NCBI GenBank assembly: GCA_937910235.1
Contig: CALENB010000151.1
Coordinates: 1-22,445, forward strand
DNA length: 22,445 nt
Origin: an uncultured Myxococcales bacterium
GTDB lineage: Bacteria > Myxococcota_A > UBA9042
Direction of reading: 5' to 3'
A model generated the notes under the pieces. It was not told where the DNA came from, did no database searches, and worked only from the letters and a program-made list of their open reading frames with translations. The position numbers and the translations under genes are program-made. Below, piece by piece: positions 6,823-18,312 of the stretch (positions within the stretch are counted from its first letter, which is position 1; each line of letters starts with the position of its first letter).

Positions 6823-7194
6823 ATGAGTCGACGCACCACACAGCGCTCCGCGATCTGCGCCGCCTTTGAATCCGCCGCGCGTCCGCTGAAACCAGACGAG
6901 GTGCTCGCCCTGGCGCAGCAAGTGGTGCCGGGGCTGGGCGCGGCGACCGTGTATCGCAACCTCCGCCGACTCACCGAGGACGGCTGGCTGCGCGTTGTGG
7001 CGCTGCCCGGCGACGCGACGCGGCTGTACGAACGAGCCGGGCTCGCGCATCACCATCATTTCCATTGCGACCGCTGTGACCGCGTCTTTGACGTGCACGT
7101 CTGCCCCGGGGATCTAGGCAAGCTCGTGCCGCCGGGCTTCGCTGTGACGCAGCACGAGTTTGTGCTGTACGGGAGCTGCGCCGACTGCAACTAG
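6823..7194 (+). CDS. zur: Fur-family metalloregulator (Zur-like by genomic context)
   Basis: Winged-helix region with the conserved ATVYRNLRRL motif, followed by HHHHFHCDRCDRVFDV and a C-terminal CADC metal site. Assignment to Zur rather than Fur or Mur is an inference from the adjacent znuACB-type operon. Confidence 0.85.
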   Translation: MSRRTTQRSAICAAFESAARPLKPDEVLALAQQVVPGLGAATVYRNLRRLTEDGWLRVVALPGDATRLYERAGLAHHHHFHCDRCDRVFDVHVCPGDLGKLVPPGFAVTQHEFVLYGSCADCN

Positions 7195-7284
7195 CCGCCA
7201 CGCATCGCCGATGCTCCATCGCCCCGCGGGCGGGCCATACGGATGCCATCTCCTAACTCTTTGGTTCTATTTACCGCGCACGCC

Positions 7285-7325
7285 ATGCTTGCAAATGAGA
7301 AGCAGTTATCATTAATGTTCGCCAT
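7285..7325. promoter_or_regulatory. AT-rich Fur/Zur-box-like operator candidate between the Fur-family gene and the OMP-znu operon
   Basis: ttgcaaatgagaagcagttatcattaatgttcgcc is a conspicuous AT-rich island in GC-rich DNA. It contains the perfect palindrome CATTAATG and a TTATCATTAAT core that matches the Fur-box half-site ATCATTATC at 7 of 9 positions. It sits immediately 5' of the likely OMP start codons at 7315 and 7324. Confidence 0.35.
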
Positions 7326-8676
7326 GCTCGACGCCTACCGACACAGTCTCCACCCCCGCGCCGCCCGCCAATCACTGGCTGTGGCGCTCCTGATCGGGTG
7401 CGTCGTCGCGTCGCCGCGGTGTCATGCCCAGCCCACACCGCCGCCGCCGCCGCCGCCGCTGGCGTCCACGGCGCAACCCTCGCCAGAAGAACAGCGCCTG
7501 CTGCGGGACAGCTTGCAGGCCGATCGTCGCGGCCAATCCGCCAGTGGGACGGTCCCAAACGCCGCGTCGCTCCCGGCGGGCACCGGCGGGCCGGCTGCCT
7601 ATCGAAGGCAGTCGCTCGCGACCGTCATGAACCCGAACATCTCGCTCATTCTCGATGTAGCCGCGGGCTGGTTCTCGGTCGAAAAGCCGCTGCAGGCCGG
7701 CGCGCATGACCCAAACAAGACTGGCTTTACCCTGCAACAACTCGAGCTACACCTGGACGCCGCGGTCGACCCATATTTTGAGTTGCAAGCCAACCTCGTC
7801 TTCACCGAGGAGGGCGTTGAGGTAGAGGAGGCCTATGCACGCACGCTCTCCCTGCCCGCTGCGCTGCAGCTGCGCGCCGGACAGTTCTTCACCCGGCTTG
7901 GGCGCACAAACGCGACGCATCCGCACACCTGGAACTTCGCTGACCAGCCGATCGTCAACGGTAAGATGCTGGGAGGGGATGGACTGCGCGGAGTCGGCGC
8001 CGAGCTGTCGTGGCTCAGCCCCTTGCCCTGGTATGCGGAGGTGGTCGTCAGCACGCAGATGGGCACTGGCGCCTGCTGCGCCCGCAGCTTCTGGGGCGAT
8101 CAGGCACAACCGGTGCGCACCCCGACGGACCTGATGCAGCTGGCGCGGCTTCAGCAGTTCTTTCCCCTGAACCAGGATTGGAGCGTGTCGTGGGGCTTGT
8201 CCGCCGCCACGGGACCCAACGGCTCAGGCGTCGGGACCGCGGGCCTCGCGACGTCGGACGACGTCCGCACCGATCTGTGGGCGACCGATCTCTACGTGCG
8301 CTACCGCCCGGTGGCGAACCGCGCGCGCGTCGCGTTGTCGTGGCAGACCGAGGCGATGTTGCGCCGTCGCCACGGAGGCGATCGTGTGCTTCAAGACTGG
8401 GGCGTCACCTCCGAGCTTGTGTGGCGCTACGACTTGCGGCACGCCGCTGGCATCCGTGTGGAGCACGTGACCGGCGTGGTGGACGACCCCCTGGATCCCG
8501 ACTGGACCGGGGCCCGACAGCGTCTCACGGCGCAGTGGACGCTGTTCCCCTCCCATTTTTCACGGCTGCGCTTTCAGACCAGCGTCGACCAGCCATCTTG
8601 GCGCTCAAAGCCGATAATCGCGGCGTTTGTGGCGCTTGAGGTGCTGATCGGCGCCCACGGCTCGCACGAGTTTTAG
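7315..8676 (+). CDS. outer-membrane beta-barrel protein (putative metal-uptake porin) in operon with znuACB
   Basis: The track ORF starts at 7243, but the signal-peptide-like stretch (RAARQSLAVALLIGCVVASPRCHA-QP) begins after the internal ATGs at 7315 and 7324. A poly-Pro linker follows (PTPPPPPPP), then alternating amphipathic beta-strand-like sequence. The C-terminus is ...EVLIGAHGSHEF with a terminal Phe, typical of OM beta-barrels. The downstream znuA start is 10 nt after the stop with a strong SD. Confidence 0.65.
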   Translation: MFAMLDAYRHSLHPRAARQSLAVALLIGCVVASPRCHAQPTPPPPPPPLASTAQPSPEEQRLLRDSLQADRRGQSASGTVPNAASLPAGTGGPAAYRRQSLATVMNPNISLILDVAAGWFSVEKPLQAGAHDPNKTGFTLQQLELHLDAAVDPYFELQANLVFTEEGVEVEEAYARTLSLPAALQLRAGQFFTRLGRTNATHPHTWNFADQPIVNGKMLGGDGLRGVGAELSWLSPLPWYAEVVVSTQMGTGACCARSFWGDQAQPVRTPTDLMQLARLQQFFPLNQDWSVSWGLSAATGPNGSGVGTAGLATSDDVRTDLWATDLYVRYRPVANRARVALSWQTEAMLRRRHGGDRVLQDWGVTSELVWRYDLRHAAGIRVEHVTGVVDDPLDPDWTGARQRLTAQWTLFPSHFSRLRFQTSVDQPSWRSKPIIAAFVALEVLIGAHGSHEF

Positions 8677-8685
8677 GAGGTTCAG

Positions 8686-9654
8686 ATGCGCTTCATCGGC
8701 AGCTCTCACCGACACCCAGGCCTACGGGGCGCCGTGGTTGTCGCCTTGGTCGTCGCCGGGATCGCGGCGCCGTCCGGATGGGCCGCCCCTTCGAAGATCG
8801 CGCCGGCGCTGCAGATTGTCGCGACCCTCCCCGATCTGGCGGCGCTTGTGCAGGCGGTAGGCGGCCCCCACGTTCACGTGACCGCCTTGGCCGCACCCAA
8901 CCAAGATCCCCACTACGTCGACCCTCGACCGAGCCTGATGTTGCCGCTGTCCCGCGCACATCTGCTCGTCGTCAACGGTCTGCAGCTGGAGCAAGGCTGG
9001 CTTCCGCCGCTGATCCGGGGTTCCCGCAACAGTCGCATCCAGCCGGGCACCACTGGGCACCTCGACGCGTCGTTTTTTGTGCAGAGGCTGCAGGTGTCGA
9101 CCGCCCCGCTCAGCCGCGCCATGGGGGACGTGCATCCCGGTGGCAACCCGCATTTTGTCTGTGATCCGCGCGCCAGCGCCCGCGTCGCTAAGGCGATTGG
9201 CGAACGGCTGGCCCAGTTGGACCCCGCGCACGCCGCCGCCTATCTGGCCCAGACGACGGCGTTTGTGGCGCAGCTGACGGCCATCGCCAAGGCCCAGCGG
9301 AGCCGCTTCGCCAAGCTGCCTGTGCCCAGGCGGCGTATTGTCAGCTACCACCGCTCGTTGCCCTATCTGCTCGATTGGCTGGGCCTGCAGGAGGTGGCGA
9401 CCGTCGAGCCGCGACCGGGCATCCCGCCGAGTCCGGCGCACACCGCGACCGTTCTGACCACGATGCGGCAGCTGGGCGTGACCGTGCTGGTGCAGGAGGA
9501 GTTCTACCCGCGCCGCGTCAGCCAGACATTGGCGAAGCTCGTGAAGGGCGCCGTCGTCGTGCTGCCGGGCGGAGCCCGCTTTGACCGAGGAGAGACCTAT
9601 GTCGCCCGCCTCCAGCGCACGACCGCCGCGCTCTACGCTGCCCTCGGTGGCTGA
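8686..9654 (+). CDS. znuA: metal (Zn/Mn) ABC transporter periplasmic substrate-binding protein, ZnuA/TroA family
   Basis: AGGAGG 6 nt upstream of the ATG. Signal peptide (AVVVALVVAGIAAPSGWA). Conserved cluster-9 SBP features (DPHYVDPRPSLMLPLSRAHLLVVNGLQLEQGW; HPGGNPHFVCDP). Confidence 0.9.
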   Translation: MRFIGSSHRHPGLRGAVVVALVVAGIAAPSGWAAPSKIAPALQIVATLPDLAALVQAVGGPHVHVTALAAPNQDPHYVDPRPSLMLPLSRAHLLVVNGLQLEQGWLPPLIRGSRNSRIQPGTTGHLDASFFVQRLQVSTAPLSRAMGDVHPGGNPHFVCDPRASARVAKAIGERLAQLDPAHAAAYLAQTTAFVAQLTAIAKAQRSRFAKLPVPRRRIVSYHRSLPYLLDWLGLQEVATVEPRPGIPPSPAHTATVLTTMRQLGVTVLVQEEFYPRRVSQTLAKLVKGAVVVLPGGARFDRGETYVARLQRTTAALYAALGG

Positions 9655-10396
9655 GGTCGCGCCGACGCTGGTGACGCTGGACGCGCTGCGTCCAGGCTAT
9701 GACGGACGCGCCTTGCTGCCGCCAGTGAGCCTGCGCCTCGTCGCTGGCGAGCTGTGGGCGCTGGTCGGTCGCAACGGCGGCGGAAAGACGACGCTGATGC
9801 AGACGCTCCTCGGTCTGCAGGCGCCGGTCTCTGGCGCTGTCACGCACAAAGACGGCCTGCGGATGGCCTACGTGCCGCAGCGATTACGCTATGATCTCAG
9901 TGTTCCGACGCGCGTCACCGACTTTGTGGCGGACGGGTTGGAGACCGGGTGGCGTTTTCTCAACCCCTTTCGGAGCGCCCAGCAGCGGGCCAGCGTGGCG
10001 GAGGCGCTGCGCGACACGGACCTTGAAGCCATCGCGCTGGCGCCCCTGAGCGCGCTCTCGGAGGGACAGAAACAGCGAGTGGTGATCGCCCGCGCTTTGG
10101 TCACCCAGCCGCACCTGATGGTGCTCGACGAGCCGACGAGCGCGATGGACCCCGTCAACGAGCGCCAGATCCTCGGGTTGATCGCCGGGCTCTCGCAACA
10201 GCGCGCCATTGCGGTGATGATCGCGAGCCACCACATGCGCGCCTTGCCGGACTTCGCCCAGCACGCCCTGCTCGTCGACAAAGACCTCGGCATCGCCCGC
10301 GCTGGTGGTCTGCGGGAGGTGTTTCAATCGGCTGAGTTTCGCCGCATCTACGGAGATCCGCCGCTCGGCGCGCAATCGGAGGCGCAACGTGCTTGA
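9599..10396 (+). CDS. znuC: metal ABC transporter ATP-binding protein
   Basis: Walker A GRNGGGKTTL, ABC signature LSEGQKQRVVIARAL, and Walker B LMVLDEPTSAMD. The ATG at 9599 has GGAGAG upstream but overlaps znuA by 56 nt. An alternative in-frame GTG at 9671 lies 17 nt after the znuA stop. Confidence 0.85.
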   Translation: MSPASSARPPRSTLPSVAEVAPTLVTLDALRPGYDGRALLPPVSLRLVAGELWALVGRNGGGKTTLMQTLLGLQAPVSGAVTHKDGLRMAYVPQRLRYDLSVPTRVTDFVADGLETGWRFLNPFRSAQQRASVAEALRDTDLEAIALAPLSALSEGQKQRVVIARALVTQPHLMVLDEPTSAMDPVNERQILGLIAGLSQQRAIAVMIASHHMRALPDFAQHALLVDKDLGIARAGGLREVFQSAEFRRIYGDPPLGAQSEAQRA

Positions 10397-11264
10397 GGCC
10401 GCGCCCACGCTCGACCAGTTCATGGACGGTTGGGAGCTCTTTGCCGACCCAGCGCTGACCGGCGCGGCCATGGGCATGACCCTCGGTGTCGTCGGGGTCT
10501 ACGTCGTCGTCCGCCATCTCGTCTTTCTCAGCGCCACCCTCTCGCAGGCCGCCAGCCTGGGGGTCGCGCTGTCGTTTCTCGGCCGCGGCTTGGGGCTGCC
10601 CGCGTGGCTGATCTCACCCACCCTCGGCGCCGCGGTGGTCAGCCTCGGCGCCGTCAGCCTTTTTGCCCGCCCGCTCCGACGCCCACACGCCCGCGATGAC
10701 GCCACCCTCGGCCTGCTGTACCTCGTCGGCGCCGCGGGCACCTTGGCCGTGGGGACCCGCGTTGTGCAGGATCTCGCCGACATCCAGACCCTGCTCTTCG
10801 GCACTGCGGTCGCCGTGTTGCCGGAGGATGTGCACCTCGTGTTGTGGACCTGCGCTGGCGTCCTCGCGCTCCACGCCTGGTGGTGGCGCGGCTTTGTGGC
10901 GACGAGCACCGACCTCACTGGGGCCCGCGTGCGGCAGCTGCCGGTGCGCTTGATCGACCTCACGCTCTTTGTGACGCTCGCGCTCAGCGTCTCCGTGTGT
11001 ACGCGCGTGCTCGGCGCGCTGCCGGCCTTCGCCTTCTCGGTGCTGCCCGCGCTGGGCGCGCTGCGGCTCGCCGCCAACGTGCCGCAGGCGCTGCTGTGGG
11101 CCGGCGGTCTGGGCGCGGTCATCGGCTTCTCCGGCTACCTAGTGGCCTTTCTGTGGTCCCTGCCAGTCGGCGCGAGCCAGGCGCTTGTGGGCGCCGCGCT
11201 GGTGGCGGTGACGTACGCGATTAGCCCGATTTTGCGCCGTTTCCGTCAGCGCCACCTCGGCTGA
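10389..11264 (+). CDS. znuB: metal ABC transporter permease (ABC-3 family)
   Basis: Multi-pass hydrophobic protein. GTG at 10389 overlaps the znuC stop (GTGCTTGA), a classic coupled start. The track ORF extends upstream to 10305 but that stretch is Arg-rich and non-membrane-like. Confidence 0.8.
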   Translation: MLEAAPTLDQFMDGWELFADPALTGAAMGMTLGVVGVYVVVRHLVFLSATLSQAASLGVALSFLGRGLGLPAWLISPTLGAAVVSLGAVSLFARPLRRPHARDDATLGLLYLVGAAGTLAVGTRVVQDLADIQTLLFGTAVAVLPEDVHLVLWTCAGVLALHAWWWRGFVATSTDLTGARVRQLPVRLIDLTLFVTLALSVSVCTRVLGALPAFAFSVLPALGALRLAANVPQALLWAGGLGAVIGFSGYLVAFLWSLPVGASQALVGAALVAVTYAISPILRRFRQRHLG

Positions 11265-11522
11265 AGCGCGTCGGATCGCGCCACTGCAGGGCCGCGTTCT
11301 CAGGCCAAGTTCGGCACGACCCAACGTCACCACCCGATCAGTTTTTGTCCTCGGCCACCGTCTGACGGCTATGTTCAATTCACAGTACTGCCGCAGCCAC
11401 GACGATGCGCTGGCATCCCGAGCGCTGACCGATGGAGCGGGTTCGCCGGTTTGTGGCCGAGCGATCGCCGCGATCGTGCGCGCGGTCCACACACAGCAGC
11501 CGACGGGGAGGAGCGCCGACAC

Positions 11523-12668
11523 ATGGAACGTGAGCACAAAAGAGTCGGGTCCGTTGCGCTCGTCTTGCTGGGGGTGGGCGTCGTCATCCTCGCGGCTGAT
11601 GCGGCGACGGGTCGCCAGCGCCTCGGGCTGCCTCCGGTGCCGGTGCCGGCCGACAACCAGATCACGCTCGCCAAGGTGGCGTTGGGTCAGAAGCTATTTG
11701 AGGACAAACGGTTGAGCGCCACGGGAGAGGTGTCCTGCGCGACGTGTCACGATCGTGCCAAAGCCTTTACCGATCATCGCAAGACCTCGCTCGGGATTCG
11801 CCAGCGCGCCAGCTTGCGCAACGCCCCAACGCTGATCAACGCCGCGTTCAACACGACCCAGTTCGGGGATGGCCGCTCACCGAGTCTGGAGGATCAAGCC
11901 CTCCATCCCTTTCTCAATCCGGTGGAGATGGGACTGGAGAGCCACGCCCCGGTCTTGCAGCTTGTCCGCACCGATGACGTGTACGTCGAAGCCTTCAAGG
12001 TGGCGTTTGGCAAGACCGACACAGCGATCACCATGAAGGAGGTCATTCAGGCCATCGCCACCTTCGAACGCACGCTCATCGCCGGCAACTCGGCGTTTGA
12101 TCGCTACTACTTCGGCCAGCAGAAGTCCGTGCTCACAGCCGCGCAGAAGCGGGGTCTCCGCGTCTTTCGCAACAAGGGCCGCTGCGTGTCGTGCCACGTC
12201 ATCGAGCAGACCACCGCGCTGTTCACCGACCACCAGTTCCACAACATCGGCGTCGGTATCCACAACATTCAGAACGACCTGCCGCGGTTGGTCGGCGAGT
12301 TTCTGAAGACGAAGCGGACCATGGCTGAGATCGACATCAACGTGCTCAGCGACGCCAAGACCTCGGAGCTCGGCCGCTTAGCGGTCACGCGCTCGTTTGA
12401 GGACATCGGGGCGTTCAAGACACCAACGCTCCGCAACGTCGCCTTCACCGCGCCCTACATGCACGACGGCTCCATCAAGACCCTGCGCGAGGCGGTTGTT
12501 CACCACAACAACGGCGGCGTGACGCGAAAGGGCGACAAGGTCAACGCCTACTTGAGCGGCGGCATCCGGCCGCTGGCGCTCACGAAGCAGGAGATCGACG
12601 ACTTGGTGTCGTTCATGGAGGCGCTGACGAGTCCAATGGTGACGCGGGGCGCCAAACGGGGGAACTAG
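11523..12668 (+). CDS. di-haem cytochrome c peroxidase (CcpA/MauG family)
   Basis: GGGAGG upstream of the ATG at 11523. Signal peptide. Two CxxCH motifs (CATCH, CVSCH) with the spacing and flanking motifs of bacterial di-haem CCPs (NAPTLINAAFN...QF..DGR; FKTPTLRNVAFTAPYMHDGS). The stop is 3 nt before the next start. Confidence 0.9.
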   Translation: MEREHKRVGSVALVLLGVGVVILAADAATGRQRLGLPPVPVPADNQITLAKVALGQKLFEDKRLSATGEVSCATCHDRAKAFTDHRKTSLGIRQRASLRNAPTLINAAFNTTQFGDGRSPSLEDQALHPFLNPVEMGLESHAPVLQLVRTDDVYVEAFKVAFGKTDTAITMKEVIQAIATFERTLIAGNSAFDRYYFGQQKSVLTAAQKRGLRVFRNKGRCVSCHVIEQTTALFTDHQFHNIGVGIHNIQNDLPRLVGEFLKTKRTMAEIDINVLSDAKTSELGRLAVTRSFEDIGAFKTPTLRNVAFTAPYMHDGSIKTLREAVVHHNNGGVTRKGDKVNAYLSGGIRPLALTKQEIDDLVSFMEALTSPMVTRGAKRGN

Positions 12669-12671
12669 CTC

Positions 12672-13742
12672 ATGACATCTATCAACCGGCGCAGCTTCCT
12701 GACCAGATCTGCCGCGGCGATCGCAGCTGGGGTGGTGCCGATGAGCGTCGTCAAACTCGCCTACGCCGACGCGGCGCAAGACTTCTCATTCGCGTACATC
12801 TCCGATGCGCACATTCAGCACATCAAGGGCGGTCGGTTCGTCCGCAGCTGGGATCGCGGTCTGATCCGAGCCGTGGCCGAGACCAACCTGCTCTCACCCA
12901 AACCGGACTTCGTCATGTTCGGCGGCGACTTGGCGCACCTTGGTGGCCGCGCCGAGCTCGACCACGGGGCGGAGATCCTGTCTGCGCTCGGCTACAAGAC
13001 GCGCTACGTGATGGGTGAACACGACTACTACCTCGATTTGGGTCGGTATTGGTCGACGCTGTTTGGTCCGCAGTACTACGCTTTCGACCACAAAGGCGTC
13101 CATTTCGTGGTGCTCAACAGCATCCTCACGCACGAAAAGTGGACCCTGCAGCGCTGGCCTGACGCCAAGACGCGCATGCGTCAGATGGCCGCGCTCGACA
13201 ATCCCAATGGCTCGCCATTTATGGTCGGCGCGCCACAGCGGGCGTGGCTGCAGGCCGACCTGGCGAAGGTCAACAAGGCCACGCCGGTCGTCGTCTTCTC
13301 GCACTCCCCGCTCCAGAAGCTCTACAGAGGCTGGAACTTCTGGACCGACGACGCAGACGAGGTCCAGGCGCTGCTGCAGCCGTTCGACCACGTCACCGTG
13401 ATCTACGGCCACGTGCATCAAATCCAATACAACCAGATCGGCAACATCAGCTTTCACGCGGTGATGGCGACCGCTTGGCCGTGTCCGTGCCCGTCGACGT
13501 ACGCGCAGGCCAAGCGCGCCATGCCTGTGTTGACGGTGCCGATGAACCGGGCCGATCCGTTCCATGAGCGCGACGGCACCGGCTGGCAGTTCATCGACAT
13601 GAACAGCGGCAAGGTGGCGGCGAACTACACGCTCTACAACAACCCCTCGCGGCGCGTGGTCTGGAACCCGACGACGCGTCGGCCCGAGGACGCGGACTTT
13701 CAGGATCCAACCAAACAGGTCGAGCCGCAGAAGCACTACTAG
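12672..13742 (+). CDS. Tat-exported metallophosphoesterase (calcineurin/purple-acid-phosphatase-like)
   Basis: Twin-arginine motif NRRSFLTRSAAAIAAG. Metallophosphoesterase metal-ligand motifs SDAH, GGDLAH, GEHDY, VVFSHSP and GHVH. GGGGAA SD upstream. Tightly coupled to the flanking ccp and cytochrome c genes. Confidence 0.85.
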   Translation: MTSINRRSFLTRSAAAIAAGVVPMSVVKLAYADAAQDFSFAYISDAHIQHIKGGRFVRSWDRGLIRAVAETNLLSPKPDFVMFGGDLAHLGGRAELDHGAEILSALGYKTRYVMGEHDYYLDLGRYWSTLFGPQYYAFDHKGVHFVVLNSILTHEKWTLQRWPDAKTRMRQMAALDNPNGSPFMVGAPQRAWLQADLAKVNKATPVVVFSHSPLQKLYRGWNFWTDDADEVQALLQPFDHVTVIYGHVHQIQYNQIGNISFHAVMATAWPCPCPSTYAQAKRAMPVLTVPMNRADPFHERDGTGWQFIDMNSGKVAANYTLYNNPSRRVVWNPTTRRPEDADFQDPTKQVEPQKHY

Positions 13743-13753
13743 GGGAACGCACC

Positions 13754-14167
13754 ATGAACAAGACCGACATCACGTTCGCGCTGGGCGCAGCGAGCCTCGT
13801 CGCCCTCGCCGTCGGGGCCACGGCGGACGCAGACAACTTCACCAAGCCGGACATCCGGCGTTGGACGAGCGAGTACCTGACGGTCGTGCAGCAGGGTCGC
13901 GCGTTGTGGGGGAGCCCCAAGCTGGGGACCAACGGCGTGACATGCGGGCAGTGTCACCCCAACGCCGCCAACACGCACCCGGAGACGTACCCGAAGTTCC
14001 AGAAGCAGCTCGGCAAGGTCGTGCCGTTGCGTGAGATGATCAACTGGTGCTTACGCAACCCGCTGAAGGGCAAGCCGCTCGCGTACGATGACCCGACGAT
14101 GATCGCGATTGAGGCCTACGTGACGCACGAACGACGCGGTGTGCGGTTGGCGCCAGGCAAACACTAG
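13754..14167 (+). CDS. mono-haem c-type cytochrome (periplasmic)
   Basis: Signal peptide MNKTDITFALGAASLVALAVGATADA and a single CGQCH haem-binding motif. The start lies 11 nt after the phosphoesterase stop with GGGGA upstream. Confidence 0.8.
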   Translation: MNKTDITFALGAASLVALAVGATADADNFTKPDIRRWTSEYLTVVQQGRALWGSPKLGTNGVTCGQCHPNAANTHPETYPKFQKQLGKVVPLREMINWCLRNPLKGKPLAYDDPTMIAIEAYVTHERRGVRLAPGKH

Positions 14168-14178
14168 CGCCGCGCGCC

Positions 14179-15021
14179 TCAGGGGCCGACGCAGGTGCCG
14201 CCGGCGCAGACCTTGCCGATAGCGCACAGCGAGCCATCGGGCGCGGGTTTGTGGGTGCAGCCGCCCTTGCCGTCACAGGCGTCGAATGTGCAGAGGTTCG
14301 TGTCTGCGCAGCCGATCACTGGCTTGCTGGCGCACGTTCCGGCGGCGTCACAGCTGTCGTGGCCCCACGGGTCGGTGCGAATAACGCGGATTTGTGGGCC
14401 TGCAGTTGTCTGCACTGCGCCGAGCAACGCCAGCGAGCCATCTGCCCAACGGTCGAGCGCGCGCGCCGTCGGCAACGACATGGCGGCCAAGTCGGCGTTG
14501 TGTTGCGTGTTCCAGATGGGGTTGCCCGCGCCGTCCGTCCCCATCAGGCCGAGCACGCCGACGCCGCTCACGCTGAGCTGGTTGGCCATCACGAGCCCTG
14601 TTTGCGTAGCGATCACGGAAGACCACTTGGACCCCGTCGGGCTGACCTGCTCCAGCAGCACCTTGCCGGATTCGTTGACCAGCATCGCCCACGGGATCTT
14701 GAATCCCGGCGCGTACGTGGCTTGGCCGCTCAACACGGTGCCGACCGAGGCCAGCGCTGCGCCGAGCACGGTGACGGGGTACTTCGCCTTGACGATGACG
14801 TTCGCCAGGACCAGGCCGCCCGCGCTCAGCAAGGCGACACGCACGGTCTTCTCGTTCGCCACGAGTGACGCCGCGATCAGCACGTGGCCGCTCCCGTTGG
14901 TGCTGAGGCGCGCGTTGCCCTGTATCGCGCCGGTCGCGCCGAGCGCAGCCGTCGGCCAGACCGCGGCGCCGTCGCCGTTGATGCGCTGCACACGCAACGC
15001 CGTGTCAAACCACGCGACCAC
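14179..15021 (-). CDS. C-terminal segment of the Cys-rich repeat protein (second beta-rich module plus DPWGHDSC Cys-knot tail)
   Basis: Same frame as the upstream piece. It begins at a GTG 24 codons after the TGA at 15094-15096 and ends RTDPWGHDSCDAAGTCASKPVIGCADTNLCTFDACDGKGGCTHKPAPDGSLCAIGKVCAGGTCVGP, paralleling the RADPWGRDSC... module upstream. Confidence 0.5.
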   Translation of the reverse strand: MVAWFDTALRVQRINGDGAAVWPTAALGATGAIQGNARLSTNGSGHVLIAASLVANEKTVRVALLSAGGLVLANVIVKAKYPVTVLGAALASVGTVLSGQATYAPGFKIPWAMLVNESGKVLLEQVSPTGSKWSSVIATQTGLVMANQLSVSGVGVLGLMGTDGAGNPIWNTQHNADLAAMSLPTARALDRWADGSLALLGAVQTTAGPQIRVIRTDPWGHDSCDAAGTCASKPVIGCADTNLCTFDACDGKGGCTHKPAPDGSLCAIGKVCAGGTCVGP

Positions 15022-15093: not shown

Positions 15094-18000
15094 TCACATC
15101 GCTTTTCCCTCGAGATCTCGGCGTTGCAGCGTCGCGTGCGGGTAAGTACCGCCGCTGGTCACATGGCCGAGCACCGCGATGTCACCGCCGATCGGCGCGA
15201 CCGCGACGGCGCCCAAGCCTGCGCTCCCCACCGGCAGCGTGACGGAATCGGTCGCGACGCCAACCACGCCGCCGCTGTCCGAGATCCGCACGCTGACGTT
15301 GTTGGCGTCCGCGCCGCGGCCCACGACAGCCACGCCGCCATCCGGGAGCGTCGCGATCGCTGCGACCGACGTCACGCCTGGCACCGCCACCGTCTTGGCG
15401 TAGAGCAACGTTGCCTGTCCGGCGTTGCAGGTCGCCCCGCTGCAGGCCCCGTCGAGGTGGCACGCGTCGCCCGGTTTGCACAGCAGCCCCGGCGGCGCGG
15501 CGTGAAAGCAGCCGGTTGCGGCCGAACAGAGGTCGAGGTTGCAGCTCTTGCCATCTGAGCAGTCGTAGTACGCCTTGTCGCCGCACGCGCCGGAAGAAGC
15601 GCAGCTGTCACGTCCCCAGGGGTCGGCGCGCACGTACCAAGACTCCTCCTTGCCGCCGCCAACCGCCTCGCTGTAGCCCGCGAAAAACAACCTGCCGTTC
15701 GCCAGCACACCGACGGCCGTGGCCACGTCTCGCCGGCCCGGCTCCATCGGCGGATTGCGGACCCACTCCAAGTTGCCTTGCACGTCGAGCACGCCGAGGT
15801 ACGCGCGATTCGCGTACGACGGATCGTGAAAGCTCCCCGCGAAGACGACGGCGTCGTCGCCTCGGGTGACGAGCGAGTTGAGCTCACTGCCAACGGGGCT
15901 GGTGATCTGGCGCGCGAGCACCCCGGAGGCGTTGGTCATGACCGCCCACGCGTACGGGTAGCCATTCACGCGGTTCGCGCCGGCCGCGGCGAACGTGCCG
16001 GAACTGGTGACCGCCACATCGTTCAACCGCCCGTCGTTCGCCGTGACGAAGCGTCGCTGCCACAGCAGCTTTCCAGCCTTGTCGTGACGAAACAGCCACC
16101 CGTTCCGCTGTCCGGTTGTCCCCGTCCAGCCGCAGCCGACCGTGCCGCCATCGGTCCCCACACGCTTCAAGGACAGGGGCATCGCCGACTCCGTCGTCGG
16201 GATCAGGTAACGCCACATCGGGTTACCAATGAGCGTCGTGCGTCCGATGAAGGGCTTCGCGCCGCCGGTCTTTGTCACCTCGGCGCCAACCCACGTCGCG
16301 CCACCGTCGGCCTGGCCAGCCACGCCGCCCGCCCGCGCGTCCTTGGTCAGATCCCCAATCACCTTGGACCAGTTCGTGCCGAGGCCGACGTCGACGTGAT
16401 AGAGGAACAGGGCCCGCTTGTCGTCCTTGTACGCGGTGTCGCCGACGAGCGAGACCACCGTGCCGCCGTTTGAAGACAGCGCGGTGACCTCAAACGTCGT
16501 GTCTGGATACGGCGGCGGGGCGAGGTTGCCGCTGGAGATCTGACCGTTCGCGTCGGTCACGAGCAGCCAGCCGTAGCGCGTGCTGGTCTGGTCTCCCTTG
16601 ACCCCTGTCCACGCGATGCCTGCCATCACCGCCGAGCCGTCCGCCAGCGTGACCAGGTCGGTGATCCGGCTGCGGAGCCCAGGAACCGGCTTCTTCGTGT
16701 ACGTGCCGGCCTGCAGGCGCCGGTGAAAGAACGCCGCGTGGCCCGCGCCGCTGCACGTGCCTTGTGTGCACTCGGACGCCAGCGAGCACGCGTCGTCGTC
16801 GTCACACGCCGCGCCGTCACTCGCAGGCAGCACGACACACGTGAACGAGGTCGGACCCTGCGAGAGGCAGCTCGCCACCTGGCACGCCTTCACCGCCTGG
16901 GTGCAGATGACGCTGTTACCCGTCGCGCAGACGCCGTCTTTGGTGCACGTGTCATTCACCGTGCAGCCGGAGTTGTCGCCGTTGCAGACCTTGCCCTTCA
17001 TCGCGTCGGCGTCCCCGTCGCACTTGCCCGTCTTCGTGTCACAGCTGTCCACCGTACACGCGTTGCCGTCGTCGCAGCTCTTCGCCACGTGCATGCAGCC
17101 AGCCGGCGTCTTGCAGCTGTCCACTGTGCACTCGTCGCCGTCGTCGCAGTCGGTCGGTTGGTTGCCCTTGCAGCCGCCGAGCCCGTCGCACGTGGTCCCC
17201 GCTGTGCAGACGTCGCCGTCCTCGCACGGACTGCCGCCCTTGTTCGGTTGCAGTCCGCACACGCCGGACTTGCCGTCACAGCTGTTGGTCAAACACGCCG
17301 TGTTACCGAGCGGGCTGCAGAACACCTTGCTCGCCGGGTTAAAAACACATTTCGGGACTTTGAGGGACTTGTCGCAGTAGAAGATGCCGTTGCAGAGGTC
17401 ACCGTCGTCCTCCTTCTCGCAGTCCGCGTTCTGGGTGCACTCGCAGATGGCCGCCGCGCTCTTGCAGGCCTTGCCCTCGCACACATCACCCGTCGTGCAC
17501 GCGTTGCCGTCGTCGCACTTGAAGGGACCCTCATCGCCCTTCTGGCCCACAATCTTCGGCTGCCAGGCGCAGTCCTGCCCTTTGTCGCCGGTACAACTCA
17601 GCACCGCGTCGGCCCGCGCGACCTGGGTGCACGTGCCTTCTTTGGGCAAACACACCGTCTTCGCGCAGCCCGTGTCGTCCACCGTCGGGCAGACCACCAC
17701 CGACGCTGGATTGGGCGCGCACTGGCCTGTGGCTTTGTCGCAGAACGCGATGCCGTTGCACTTGTTGCCGTCGTCCTTGTCGGCGCAGTCGCTGTCTTTG
17801 GTGCACGCACACAGGTAGGTGCCCGCTTGGCACAGACCGCCAAGGCAATGATCGCCGCTGGTGCAGGCGTCGCCGTCATCGCACGCCGTCGTCGGCGGGG
17901 CCGCGGCGGGCTGGCAGAGCCCGGTCGCCGGGGTGCAGGCGCTCGTCGTGCAGGCATCCGCGCCGCCTTTGGGGCAAGTGACCACTGTCGCCGGGTTGAC

Positions 18001-18312
18001 CTTGCACACCGGCGGCTTCGCCGCGACGTCGCAGTACAGCGTGCCGTTGCAGGCGTCGCCGTCCTCTTTCTTAAGACAATCCGCGCTCGTCGCGCACGTG
18101 CACACGTTGTCGCCGCCGGGCGCGCAGACCCCGGATTTGCAGGCGTCGCCTACCGTGCAGCCATCGTCGTCGCTGCACGCGCTGCCGTCCTTGCTGGCGA
18201 CCTTCGCGCACGTGCCGGTCTTGGGCTGGCAGACCGAGTCTTGACACGCCGCGCCGCTGTCGCCGCAGACCACGATCGTCACCGGGTTGATCTTGCACCG
18301 GAACGGAAACAC
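15094..18312 (-). CDS. central segment of the Cys-rich repeat protein (about ten Myxococcales-type Cys-rich repeats plus a beta-rich module and a DPWGRDSC Cys-knot)
   Basis: The open frame actually continues upstream to 18465 without a start codon; 18312 is only the first in-frame GTG. Repeats of the form C-x-D-D-G-[DN]-x-C-T-x-G-D-x-C and CExDxDCxKEDDGDxCNGxxYCD with NPA[ST]VVxC spacers, similar to TIGR02232-type myxobacterial Cys-rich repeats. Confidence 0.6.
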   Translation of the reverse strand: MFPFRCKINPVTIVVCGDSGAACQDSVCQPKTGTCAKVASKDGSACSDDDGCTVGDACKSGVCAPGGDNVCTCATSADCLKKEDGDACNGTLYCDVAAKPPVCKVNPATVVTCPKGGADACTTSACTPATGLCQPAAAPPTTACDDGDACTSGDHCLGGLCQAGTYLCACTKDSDCADKDDGNKCNGIAFCDKATGQCAPNPASVVVCPTVDDTGCAKTVCLPKEGTCTQVARADAVLSCTGDKGQDCAWQPKIVGQKGDEGPFKCDDGNACTTGDVCEGKACKSAAAICECTQNADCEKEDDGDLCNGIFYCDKSLKVPKCVFNPASKVFCSPLGNTACLTNSCDGKSGVCGLQPNKGGSPCEDGDVCTAGTTCDGLGGCKGNQPTDCDDGDECTVDSCKTPAGCMHVAKSCDDGNACTVDSCDTKTGKCDGDADAMKGKVCNGDNSGCTVNDTCTKDGVCATGNSVICTQAVKACQVASCLSQGPTSFTCVVLPASDGAACDDDDACSLASECTQGTCSGAGHAAFFHRRLQAGTYTKKPVPGLRSRITDLVTLADGSAVMAGIAWTGVKGDQTSTRYGWLLVTDANGQISSGNLAPPPYPDTTFEVTALSSNGGTVVSLVGDTAYKDDKRALFLYHVDVGLGTNWSKVIGDLTKDARAGGVAGQADGGATWVGAEVTKTGGAKPFIGRTTLIGNPMWRYLIPTTESAMPLSLKRVGTDGGTVGCGWTGTTGQRNGWLFRHDKAGKLLWQRRFVTANDGRLNDVAVTSSGTFAAAGANRVNGYPYAWAVMTNASGVLARQITSPVGSELNSLVTRGDDAVVFAGSFHDPSYANRAYLGVLDVQGNLEWVRNPPMEPGRRDVATAVGVLANGRLFFAGYSEAVGGGKEESWYVRADPWGRDSCASSGACGDKAYYDCSDGKSCNLDLCSAATGCFHAAPPGLLCKPGDACHLDGACSGATCNAGQATLLYAKTVAVPGVTSVAAIATLPDGGVAVVGRGADANNVSVRISDSGGVVGVATDSVTLPVGSAGLGAVAVAPIGGDIAVLGHVTSGGTYPHATLQRRDLEGKAM

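Follow-up and report, generated by a model that had tools for sequence, protein, structure and literature searches.

A conserved trio of periplasmic genes in bacteria, possibly an electron-transfer module linked to hydrogen peroxide

Introduction

What might a di-haem enzyme, an exported protein of the metallophosphoesterase fold and a small cytochrome c do together in the bacterial periplasm? The question is raised by three adjacent genes on contig CALENB010000151.1 (GenBank assembly GCA_937910235.1) of an uncultured Myxococcales bacterium, analysed here over a stretch of 22,445 nucleotides, hereafter the window. The three genes, referred to as the trio, are members of a periplasmic module that is closely conserved in hundreds of bacterial species but uncharacterised, and that we tentatively read as an electron-transfer system ending on H2O2. 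The trio comprises the following co-oriented open reading frames (ORFs), with export of gene 2 by twin-arginine translocation (Tat):

11523-12668, + strand: gene 1, 381 amino acids from the ATG that bears a Shine-Dalgarno (SD) sequence; CCP_MauG-superfamily di-haem enzyme; Sec-type signal or anchor at the N-terminus
12672-13742, + strand: gene 2, 356 amino acids; Tat-exported protein of the metallophosphoesterase fold, GEHD type
13754-14167, + strand: gene 3, 137 amino acids; mono-haem cytochrome c of the SoxA/TsdA fold with a Sec signal

The ORF listing and direct reading of the sequence agree with the coordinates on which the original prediction was built, including short intergenic gaps and a separate SD for each gene, and the coupling then proposed is likewise supported. 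The gene 1 stop at 12668 is followed after 3 nucleotides by the gene 2 start at 12672, and the gene 2 stop at 13742 is followed after 11 nucleotides by the gene 3 start at 13754. SD-like purine-rich runs precede each ATG, as GGGGAGGAG-N9-ATG in gene 1, GGGGGA-N8-ATG in gene 2 and GGGGA-N7-ATG in gene 3. The haem and metal-ligand motifs of all three genes were checked by translation, codon by codon.

A gene trio conserved across phyla

Relatives of gene 2 were encoded in at least 583 species in a scan of one genome per species, and its database homologues number more than 4500. The best 120 of these are 69-90% identical to gene 2 and come from the Acidobacteriota, Planctomycetota, Verrucomicrobiota, Gammaproteobacteria and other taxa, with identities of 70-77% maintained across phyla. 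Loci from at least 12 phyla were compared, 84 in all, and every one had the order gene 1-gene 2-gene 3, except that contig ends cut off flanking genes in L066 and L074; identity to the window proteins in these loci was 55-68% for gene 1, 65-76% for gene 2 and 54-81% for gene 3. This arrangement is far beyond chance, and the original prediction, which had staked itself on the trio occurring together in other genomes, is upheld in this respect. Clustering of all flanking ORFs in the trio loci revealed no fourth conserved gene, and Pho-regulon genes were absent from every neighbourhood examined in this way.

The module also matches thousands of metagenome proteins, and it is carried by cultured bacteria, among them Methylobacter tundripaludum SV96, Methylomicrobium sp. 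wino1, Steroidobacter and Sulfuriferula. The trio had not been recognised as a described system when first noticed, and a full-text literature search found no description of it either. Searches for metallophosphoesterases or purple acid phosphatases (PAPs) together with MauG, BthA or cytochrome c peroxidase, and for DUF2231 with cupredoxin, likewise returned nothing on the trio. In the window, the G+C content of the 2.6-kb trio is approximately 0.63 (11501-13500), against 0.68-0.70 in the flanks. This difference, combined with protein identities of approximately 70% across phyla, would fit a module that has spread horizontally.

Gene 2 encodes a metallophosphoesterase-fold protein with an altered metal site

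Gene 2 matched the Metallophos family PF00149 (3.2e-12; 47.7 bits against a cut-off of 21.5), and its AlphaFold model, built from a 55-sequence alignment that included distant relatives, reached a predicted local distance difference test score (pLDDT) of 84.6; an earlier model from 20 sequences, all approximately 70% identical, scored 51.6 and was discarded. The nearest folds (Foldseek probability 1.0) are GpdQ, Rv0805 and mammalian PAPs, at 14-17% identity. The family and fold matches together bear out the proposed place of gene 2 in the metallophosphoesterase superfamily. SoxB belongs to the same superfamily, and structures of the 5'-nucleotidase/SoxB type rank 30th or lower against the model, with TM-scores of approximately 0.4; gene 2 has a single catalytic domain rather than the two-domain 5'-nucleotidase architecture of SoxB. 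Public annotations label relatives of gene 2 as CpdA/Icc.

The sequence features of gene 2 that carry the argument are:

12681-12701, + strand: twin-arginine motif INRRSFL (translation, TIGR01409)
13014-13025, + strand: GEHD motif, with Glu116 in place of the Asn metal ligand of GNH[DE] (alignments)

Export by the Tat pathway, as originally proposed, was supported by the signal model TIGR01409 (19.3 bits against a cut-off of 16.7), with INRRSFL followed by a hydrophobic stretch and AYA, and PF10518 is recorded on many homologues. The metal motifs read DAH, GD, GEHD, H211 and GHVH. Of the superfamily's metal-ligand motifs originally predicted, four are intact, and the third has GEHD in place of the canonical GNH[DE]. 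This Glu is unchanged throughout the gene 2 family and in relatives down to approximately 30% identity. We propose that two metals are bound by Asp45, His47, Asp86, Glu116, His211, His247 and His249; in the comparison with a clade approximately 40% identical to gene 2, 82 of 82 sequences keep all seven, the Glu among them.

Gene 2 had also been called PAP-like, a description that does not hold in its defining sense, as the tyrosine of the PAP motif GDxxY is replaced (GDLAQ in the family, GDLAH in the window) and the nearest structures are GpdQ and Rv0805. No PAP-specific Pfam domain was matched, and a profile search against the SoxB and PhoD models of NCBIfam gave no hit. A further family feature is the motif WPWPYP (within ATAWPWPYP), which lies in an extra C-terminal region and whose first tryptophan, W269, falls on the active-site His217 of GpdQ in the profile alignment.

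Gene 3 encodes a cytochrome with a predicted cysteine ligand

Two features define gene 3:

13943-13957, + strand: haem motif CGQCH (translation)
14042-14050, + strand: NWC, in which Cys99 is predicted to be the sixth ligand of the haem (from PDB alignments with TsdA and with the haem-1 domain of SoxA)

The description of gene 3 as a small CxxCH cytochrome proved correct, and the protein additionally carries a SoxA-TsdA_cyt-c domain (PF21342; 1.5e-14, 54.2 bits against a cut-off of 27). In the alignments, the Cys that ligates the haem in SoxA and TsdA is matched by Cys99, within MINWC, which is unchanged in all orthologues. Gene 3 is thus predicted from its alignments to be a mono-haem cytochrome of the SoxA fold with His/Cys ligation.

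Similarity to the catalytic members of this fold is limited. The active-site Arg (TsdA Arg119) is invariant in catalytic SoxA and TsdA sites (PMC4423706); at this position, four residues before the Cys, gene 3 has an invariant Met95, and it has Gln85 at the position of Arg109. It matched the N-terminal haem-1 domain of SoxA at 35.5 bits, against 11.7 bits for the catalytic domain, and scored 49.6 bits with the curated SoxA model TIGR04484, below the cut-off of 110. Gene 3 is single-haem and no SoxX gene adjoins it in the trio loci. A relationship to SoxX/TsdB-type cytochromes, which had been put forward for checking, accordingly gives way to a His/Cys cytochrome of the SoxA/TsdA fold that lacks the invariant catalytic Arg.

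Gene 1 belongs to a distinct MauG-type subfamily

Gene 1 matched PF03150 (CCP_MauG) at 7.6e-57 and carries two haem motifs:

11736-11750, + strand: first haem motif, CATCH, of the peroxide-side haem (translation; alignment to bacterial cytochrome c peroxidase (bCCP) and MbnH)
12183-12197, + strand: second haem motif, CVSCH, of the electron-transfer haem (translation and alignment)

Among PDB entries the strongest match is to MbnH (6e1c; 6e-45), which aligns along the whole protein; MauG comes next, at approximately 1e-31 over nearly the full length, while canonical bCCP structures align confidently to the N-terminal domain only. The top NCBIfam family is MbnH (TIGR04039), at 260 bits against a cut-off of 363, and the MauG model TIGR03791 scored 197 bits against a cut-off of 444. 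As gene 1 falls below the curated cut-offs of both MauG and MbnH, it is regarded as a distinct subfamily.

Two residues are informative about its type. Residue 328, which we take to correspond to MauG Tyr294 and to Met275 of the Pseudomonas aeruginosa cytochrome c peroxidase (CCP), a numbering that agrees with ungapped local alignments, is Tyr in 79 of 80 trio orthologues, the exception being the His of the window copy. Residue 115 is Trp in 78 of 80 orthologues and corresponds to the inter-haem Trp94 of P. aeruginosa CCP, again in agreement with an ungapped alignment. Both residues are kept in three divergent gene 1-like genes of a sister clade (see below), and gene 1 has Ile where activatable bCCPs have the distal His. 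His-Tyr ligation sets MauG-type enzymes apart from canonical bCCP, in which ligation is His-Met (PMC11892367). The His-Met ligation of the electron-transfer haem that typifies canonical CcpA is absent from gene 1, which has Tyr in the family and His in the window copy, whereas the His-Tyr haem and inter-haem Trp of MauG-type enzymes are found in the family, though not in the window copy. Because Tyr occupies the MauG Tyr294 position, the family is classed as MauG-type rather than canonical CcpA; at family level, gene 1 is by its sequence of the MauG/MbnH type. Of the earlier label "classic CcpA/MauG-type di-haem", the two CxxCH motifs in a CCP_MauG fold and the MauG-type assignment of the family stand, but the classic CcpA part is contradicted by the Tyr position and by MbnH as the best PDB match.

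A core pair with alternative redox partners

The gene 2 family is compact, with 86 clusters at E <= 1e-30 in a search of representatives. For the clade approximately 40% identical to gene 2, 80 metagenome loci were examined. In nearly all of them, where the contig reaches, a SoxA-like cytochrome gene comes next after the gene 2-like gene, and genes for CcoN and a CcoO/P fusion come after it. The full order of this sister cluster is ECF sigma factor, zf-HC2 anti-sigma factor, beta-sandwich protein, gene 2-like protein, gene 3-like cytochrome, CcoN, CcoO/P fusion and Caa3_CtaG (for example, L093 4690-14135; likewise L092, L094, L096, L097, L099 and many others), and seems to represent accessory genes of a cbb3-type oxidase that have not been described as a set. 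In 3 of the 80 loci a gene 1-like gene lies upstream instead of the oxidase. The haem-ligand Cys is present in all gene 3-like proteins of the sister clade, and WPWPYP is as conserved in this clade as in the trio.

As the pair of gene 2 and gene 3 persists beside a cbb3-type oxidase in loci that do not encode gene 1, it constitutes the conserved core, with either the MauG-type enzyme or the cbb3-type oxidase as its partner; both consume oxidants. The aromatic motif therefore tracks the gene 3-type cytochrome and not gene 1, being conserved where the MauG-type gene is absent.

Approximately 19-23 sister-cluster loci also encode, between the cytochrome and oxidase genes, a fusion of SoxY to SoxZ that is exported by Tat and has an invariant GGC arm; no SoxYZ-like gene was found in any trio locus. 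The fusion in L093 (8590-9459) scored above the cut-offs for both SoxY and Desulfoferrodoxin in Pfam and retains counterparts of the superoxide reductase iron ligands (HPM..H, C..H).

In another clade, approximately 35% identical to gene 2, the protein is fused at its C-terminus to plastocyanin-type or COX2-type cupredoxin, Rieske or c-haem domains, or its gene is followed by separate cupredoxin and DUF2231 genes, beside genes for an ECF sigma and anti-sigma pair and for TatA/TatC. Such fusions and adjacencies among distant GEHD relatives are exemplified by P0215, P0283, P0286, P0205, P0217 and P0254 and by loci L085 and L086. Because gene 2 and its relatives are joined to four kinds of one-electron carrier and have an extra carboxylate ligand, the dimetal site is taken to be redox-active and not merely hydrolytic. 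The original suggestion of a redox-coupled periplasmic unit rather than a plain phosphatase gains support from these fusions to, or adjacency with, cupredoxin, Rieske and c-haem domains and from the neighbouring cbb3-type oxidase.

Aromatic residues lost from the window copy

Compared with the family, the window copy has lost four aromatic residues at nearly invariant positions:

11865-11867, + strand: gene 1 codon 115, GGG, W115G, at the inter-haem Trp position (orthologue alignment)
12504-12506, + strand: gene 1 codon 328, CAC, Y328H, at the sixth haem ligand position (orthologue alignment)
13476-13493, + strand: gene 2 WPCPCP in place of the family WPWPYP, with W271C (TGT, 13482-13484) and Y273C (TGC, 13488-13490)

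Each is a single-nucleotide change, and across more than 160 loci each occurs in the window alone; the same is true of Q89H at the PAP tyrosine position of gene 2. The closest relative, L087, whose gene 2 is 90% identical, keeps Tyr328 and WPWPYP; the window substitutions are therefore recent. Decay of the window copy into a pseudogene was considered and rejected, as the reading frames are intact and pairwise ratios of non-synonymous to synonymous substitution rates (dN/dS) against the nearest relative are 0.09 (gene 2), 0.15 (gene 3) and 0.29 (gene 1 C-terminus), which indicates continuing purifying selection. Protein P0085 (L088) carries W271G yet keeps the gene 1 Tyr, and adds nothing to the covariation.

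The loss of four aromatic residues along the electron or hole path proposed below suggests a coordinated functional shift. The window copy probably has another mode of action, such as that of a simple haem relay with bis-His ligation of one haem. As a speculation, the new Cys-Pro-Cys together with the new His in gene 2 could form a metal site.

Regulators and neighbouring genes

OxyR-like or Fur/PerR-like regulators flank the trio in approximately one third of loci. OxyR-like LysR genes with the signature GHCLRD...C, which includes both redox cysteines, occur in six trio loci (best OxyR NCBIfam score, 271 bits); they are divergently adjacent in L022, L036, L037 and L053 and lie approximately 2.4 kb away in L008 and L076. 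A dedicated Fur-family clade with the motif HPTAD is encoded directly upstream of, and co-oriented with, approximately 20 trios from several phyla. The palindrome TGAGA-N5-TCTCA was found just upstream of this trio-linked Fur-family gene in seven loci and nowhere else in the 86 loci compared:

L007, 2984-2998
L008, 6317-6331
L011, 6322-6336
L015, 6335-6349
L017, 6305-6319
L019, 6238-6252
L046, 6286-6323

The palindrome is probably the operator of the trio-linked regulator, and it is unlike the classical Fur, PerR and Zur boxes, which scored no better upstream of the Fur-like genes than in shuffled sequence.

The palindrome is absent from the window, and no operator-like inverted repeat was found upstream of gene 1 there. 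The window scan detected neither a sigma-70-like promoter nor a terminator signal above background, and an Rfam scan matched no family. The upstream neighbours are:

6823-11264, + strand: Fur-family regulator (123 amino acids), 477-amino-acid outer membrane protein (OMP)-like protein, and an ABC metal importer of the MntC/ZnuA type

The OMP-like protein has a terminal Phe and no Pfam hit, and a 258-nucleotide gap (11265-11522) separates these genes from gene 1; other trio loci do not share this neighbourhood. The window regulator is 29-36% identical to the trio-linked clade and has neither its N-terminal extension nor its operator. The regulator and the importer were considered as partners of the trio and rejected, the former not being of the trio-linked type and the latter not being a conserved neighbour; for these reasons a link between the neighbours and the trio is unproven.

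In Steroidobacter/Povalibacter loci, a protein of approximately 105-120 amino acids with only the helix-turn-helix (HTH) domain of the LysR type and a conserved C-terminal EEINC motif is encoded directly upstream of gene 1:

L039, 6354-6689
L051, 6376-6690
L055, 6147-6656 (called as 169 amino acids)
L058, 6319-6687
L081, 6345-6677

In a gammaproteobacterial genome (L001, 6395-6898), a gene for a rhodanese shares 4 nucleotides with the start of gene 1 and a Sulf_transp gene lies approximately 5 kb upstream; these are the sole sulfur-related neighbours among the trio loci. Converging on the end of the window trio from the minus strand (14179-15021 and 15094-18312) are genes for large cysteine-rich proteins of secreted type (280 and 1072 amino acids) with Dicty_CTDC repeats, which are consistent with an origin in the Myxococcota.

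Known systems that resemble the trio

Known superfamilies supply the parts of the trio, and a MauG-type enzyme with a partner protein is an already known theme. The closest solved relative of gene 1, MbnH of the MbnH-MbnP pair (6e1c), is also its top NCBIfam family and oxidises a partner protein; the trio differs in that gene 1 falls below the MbnH cut-off, the partner has the metallophosphoesterase fold and is not MbnP, and no copper-uptake genes lie near the trio. The MauG/pre-methylamine dehydrogenase (preMADH) system shares a Tyr-ligated haem, an inter-haem Trp, long-range oxidation by way of aromatic residues and an electron carrier in the operon, but there are no mau genes at the trio and gene 1 of the window has neither the Tyr nor the Trp. 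The class III phosphodiesterases GpdQ and Rv0805 and the PAPs share the fold of gene 2 and six of its seven metal ligands. At 14-17% identity, gene 2 differs from them in its Glu for Asn, its missing PAP tyrosine, its Tat export, its extra C-terminal WPWPYP region and its invariable haem or copper redox partners. Similarly, gene 3 has the cytochrome fold and the Cys ligand position of SoxAX and TsdA, but is single-haem, has no SoxX or TsdB partner, lacks the catalytic Arg and is nearest to the SoxA haem-1 domain.

Two further systems pair a MauG-type gene with a phosphatase. In Burkholderia, BthA, a MauG-type di-haem enzyme with His-Tyr ligation and a bis-Fe(IV) state, is always encoded beside phosA, a secreted protein of the metallophosphoesterase superfamily (PMC6405878). 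BthA is a distant match to gene 1 (1e-18) and has no inter-haem Trp (PMC11892367), and phosA, which we compared with gene 2 by its description only, is PAP-type and predicted to reside in the outer membrane, with no SoxA-like cytochrome reported. In Flavobacterium, a MauG-like gene, Fjoh_2477, lies in an operon with PhoX, a periplasmic metal-dependent phosphatase, and the authors suspected a role in maturation (PMC8812569); that phosphatase has another fold and its operon is Pho-regulated, whereas no Pho link was seen at the trio.

A proposed mechanism and its rivals

The reading we favour, though we give it somewhat less than an even chance, is that the trio is a self-contained periplasmic electron-transfer module linked to H2O2. 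The dimetal site of gene 2 would give up electrons, whose source would be either a small reductant in the periplasm or the metals themselves; these electrons would pass along the aromatic ladder W269-W271-Y273 to the haem of gene 3. From there they would reach the His-Tyr haem of gene 1 and, by way of the inter-haem Trp, the five-coordinate haem, where H2O2 would be reduced. In the sister clusters the same core pair would instead feed the cbb3-type oxidase, and expression of the trio would probably respond to peroxide. A broader version of this idea, possible though doubtful, is that the GEHD-type Tat-exported proteins are an unrecognised class of periplasmic dimetal oxidoreductases that pass electrons from a small reductant through dedicated carriers to a terminal enzyme. 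Under it, the reductant could be Fe(II), Mn(II) or a sulfur or phosphorus oxyanion, for example, and the carriers would be the His/Cys cytochrome, cupredoxin or Rieske protein; the trio would be a substrate:H2O2 oxidoreductase of many soil and sediment bacteria, and the window lineage a natural four-residue knock-out of the aromatic path.

Several points weigh against the H2O2-linked module. Known His/Cys haems have very low potentials, which is awkward for a simple relay. The four changes of the window copy occurred in one lineage and therefore count as a single event, so that they do not prove the path, and the region that holds the aromatic motif (residues 264-300) is of low confidence in the gene 2 model. 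Most trio loci have no adjacent regulator, and the trio-linked Fur-family gene scores equally with the PerR and Fur models of NCBIfam, for which reason neither identity was assigned. The literature search found no experiment on any trio member, and the data constrain neither the direction of electron flow nor the substrate, which, like the identity of the metals, are our inferences. In addition, MauG-type enzymes are mostly poor peroxidases that usually oxidise a partner protein (PMC11892367), which favours a role of gene 1 in maturation.

Maturation or activation of gene 2 by gene 1 is the main alternative, though a rather unlikely one. Gene 1 would react with H2O2 to reach a bis-Fe(IV) state and, once gene 2 had been exported by Tat, would oxidise through long-range hole hopping either the Trp and Tyr of WPWPYP, giving a protein-derived cofactor, or the metal centre, as from Fe(II) to Fe(III). 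The working enzyme, possibly a hydrolase, would be gene 2, with gene 3 supplying or removing electrons. In its favour, the Tyr and Trp typical of MauG are present in the gene 1 family, and every MauG-type enzyme characterised so far has another protein as its target (MauG acts on preMADH, MbnH on MbnP; PMC11892367); in the window copy, the loss of the gene 1 Tyr and Trp coincides with that of W271 and Y273 from gene 2. Precedents also exist in bthA, which always accompanies a putative PAP gene and is induced together with it (PMC6405878), and in Flavobacterium phoX, induced with Fjoh_2477 by phosphate depletion (PMC8812569, PMC8115612). However, WPWPYP is equally conserved in the sister cluster, which has a cbb3-type oxidase and no MauG-type gene, and a maturase would not be expected to come first in an operon, translationally coupled and at an apparent 1:1 stoichiometry. 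The neighbourhoods hold no Pho-regulon genes, and the cupredoxin and Rieske fusions of the relatives point to continuous electron transfer.

A miniature Sox-like pathway for sulfur oxyanions, with the gene 3 Cys forming an S-sulfonate or thiosulfonate adduct with release of two electrons, a SoxB-like gene 2 hydrolysing off sulfate and gene 1 passing the electrons to H2O2, seems improbable to us. It would explain the retained Cys ligand of the SoxA/TsdA domain and accords with the membership of SoxB in the superfamily of gene 2, with the SoxY-SoxZ fusions bearing a GGC arm in the sister clusters and with the rhodanese gene that overlaps gene 1 in one trio locus. Against it stand Met95 and Gln85 of gene 3 in place of Arg119 and Arg109, the far better match to the haem-1 than to the catalytic domain, the lack of a SoxB match for gene 2 in NCBIfam and the low rank of SoxB-type folds, as well as the absence of SoxYZ-like genes from every trio locus; moreover, the carrier taxa are mostly not sulfur oxidisers and the flanking regulators are of the OxyR or Fur type. 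Least probable of all is an assembly of ordinary parts, in which a periplasmic peroxidase and its cytochrome c donor merely share an operon with an unrelated secreted phosphodiesterase. bCCPs commonly take electrons from small cytochromes, relatives of gene 2 are annotated as CpdA/Icc and its nearest structures are phosphodiesterases. Such an assembly is nevertheless difficult to reconcile with three genes that stay adjacent and in strict order in 84 of 84 loci from different phyla, with a gene 2-gene 3 pair that persists where gene 1 is missing, with redox-domain fusions and an invariant Asn-to-Glu ligand change in the gene 2 clade, and with a His/Cys haem in gene 3 where a class I donor would have His/Met.

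Implications

The trio unites a MauG-type haem enzyme, a type that generates very strong oxidants, with a Cys-ligated cytochrome and a phosphoesterase fold that has gained a carboxylate ligand and redox partners, and the chance that the GEHD proteins represent a class of periplasmic redox enzyme not recognised before is substantial. If gene 2 is indeed a redox enzyme, a hydrolytic-type fold would have been recruited for electron transfer. The trio would also offer a concrete partner and a test system for the role of orphan MauG-type enzymes such as BthA. Given such a redox role of gene 2, the module would represent a new route of peroxide or oxygen consumption at oxic-anoxic interfaces, including in methanotrophs.

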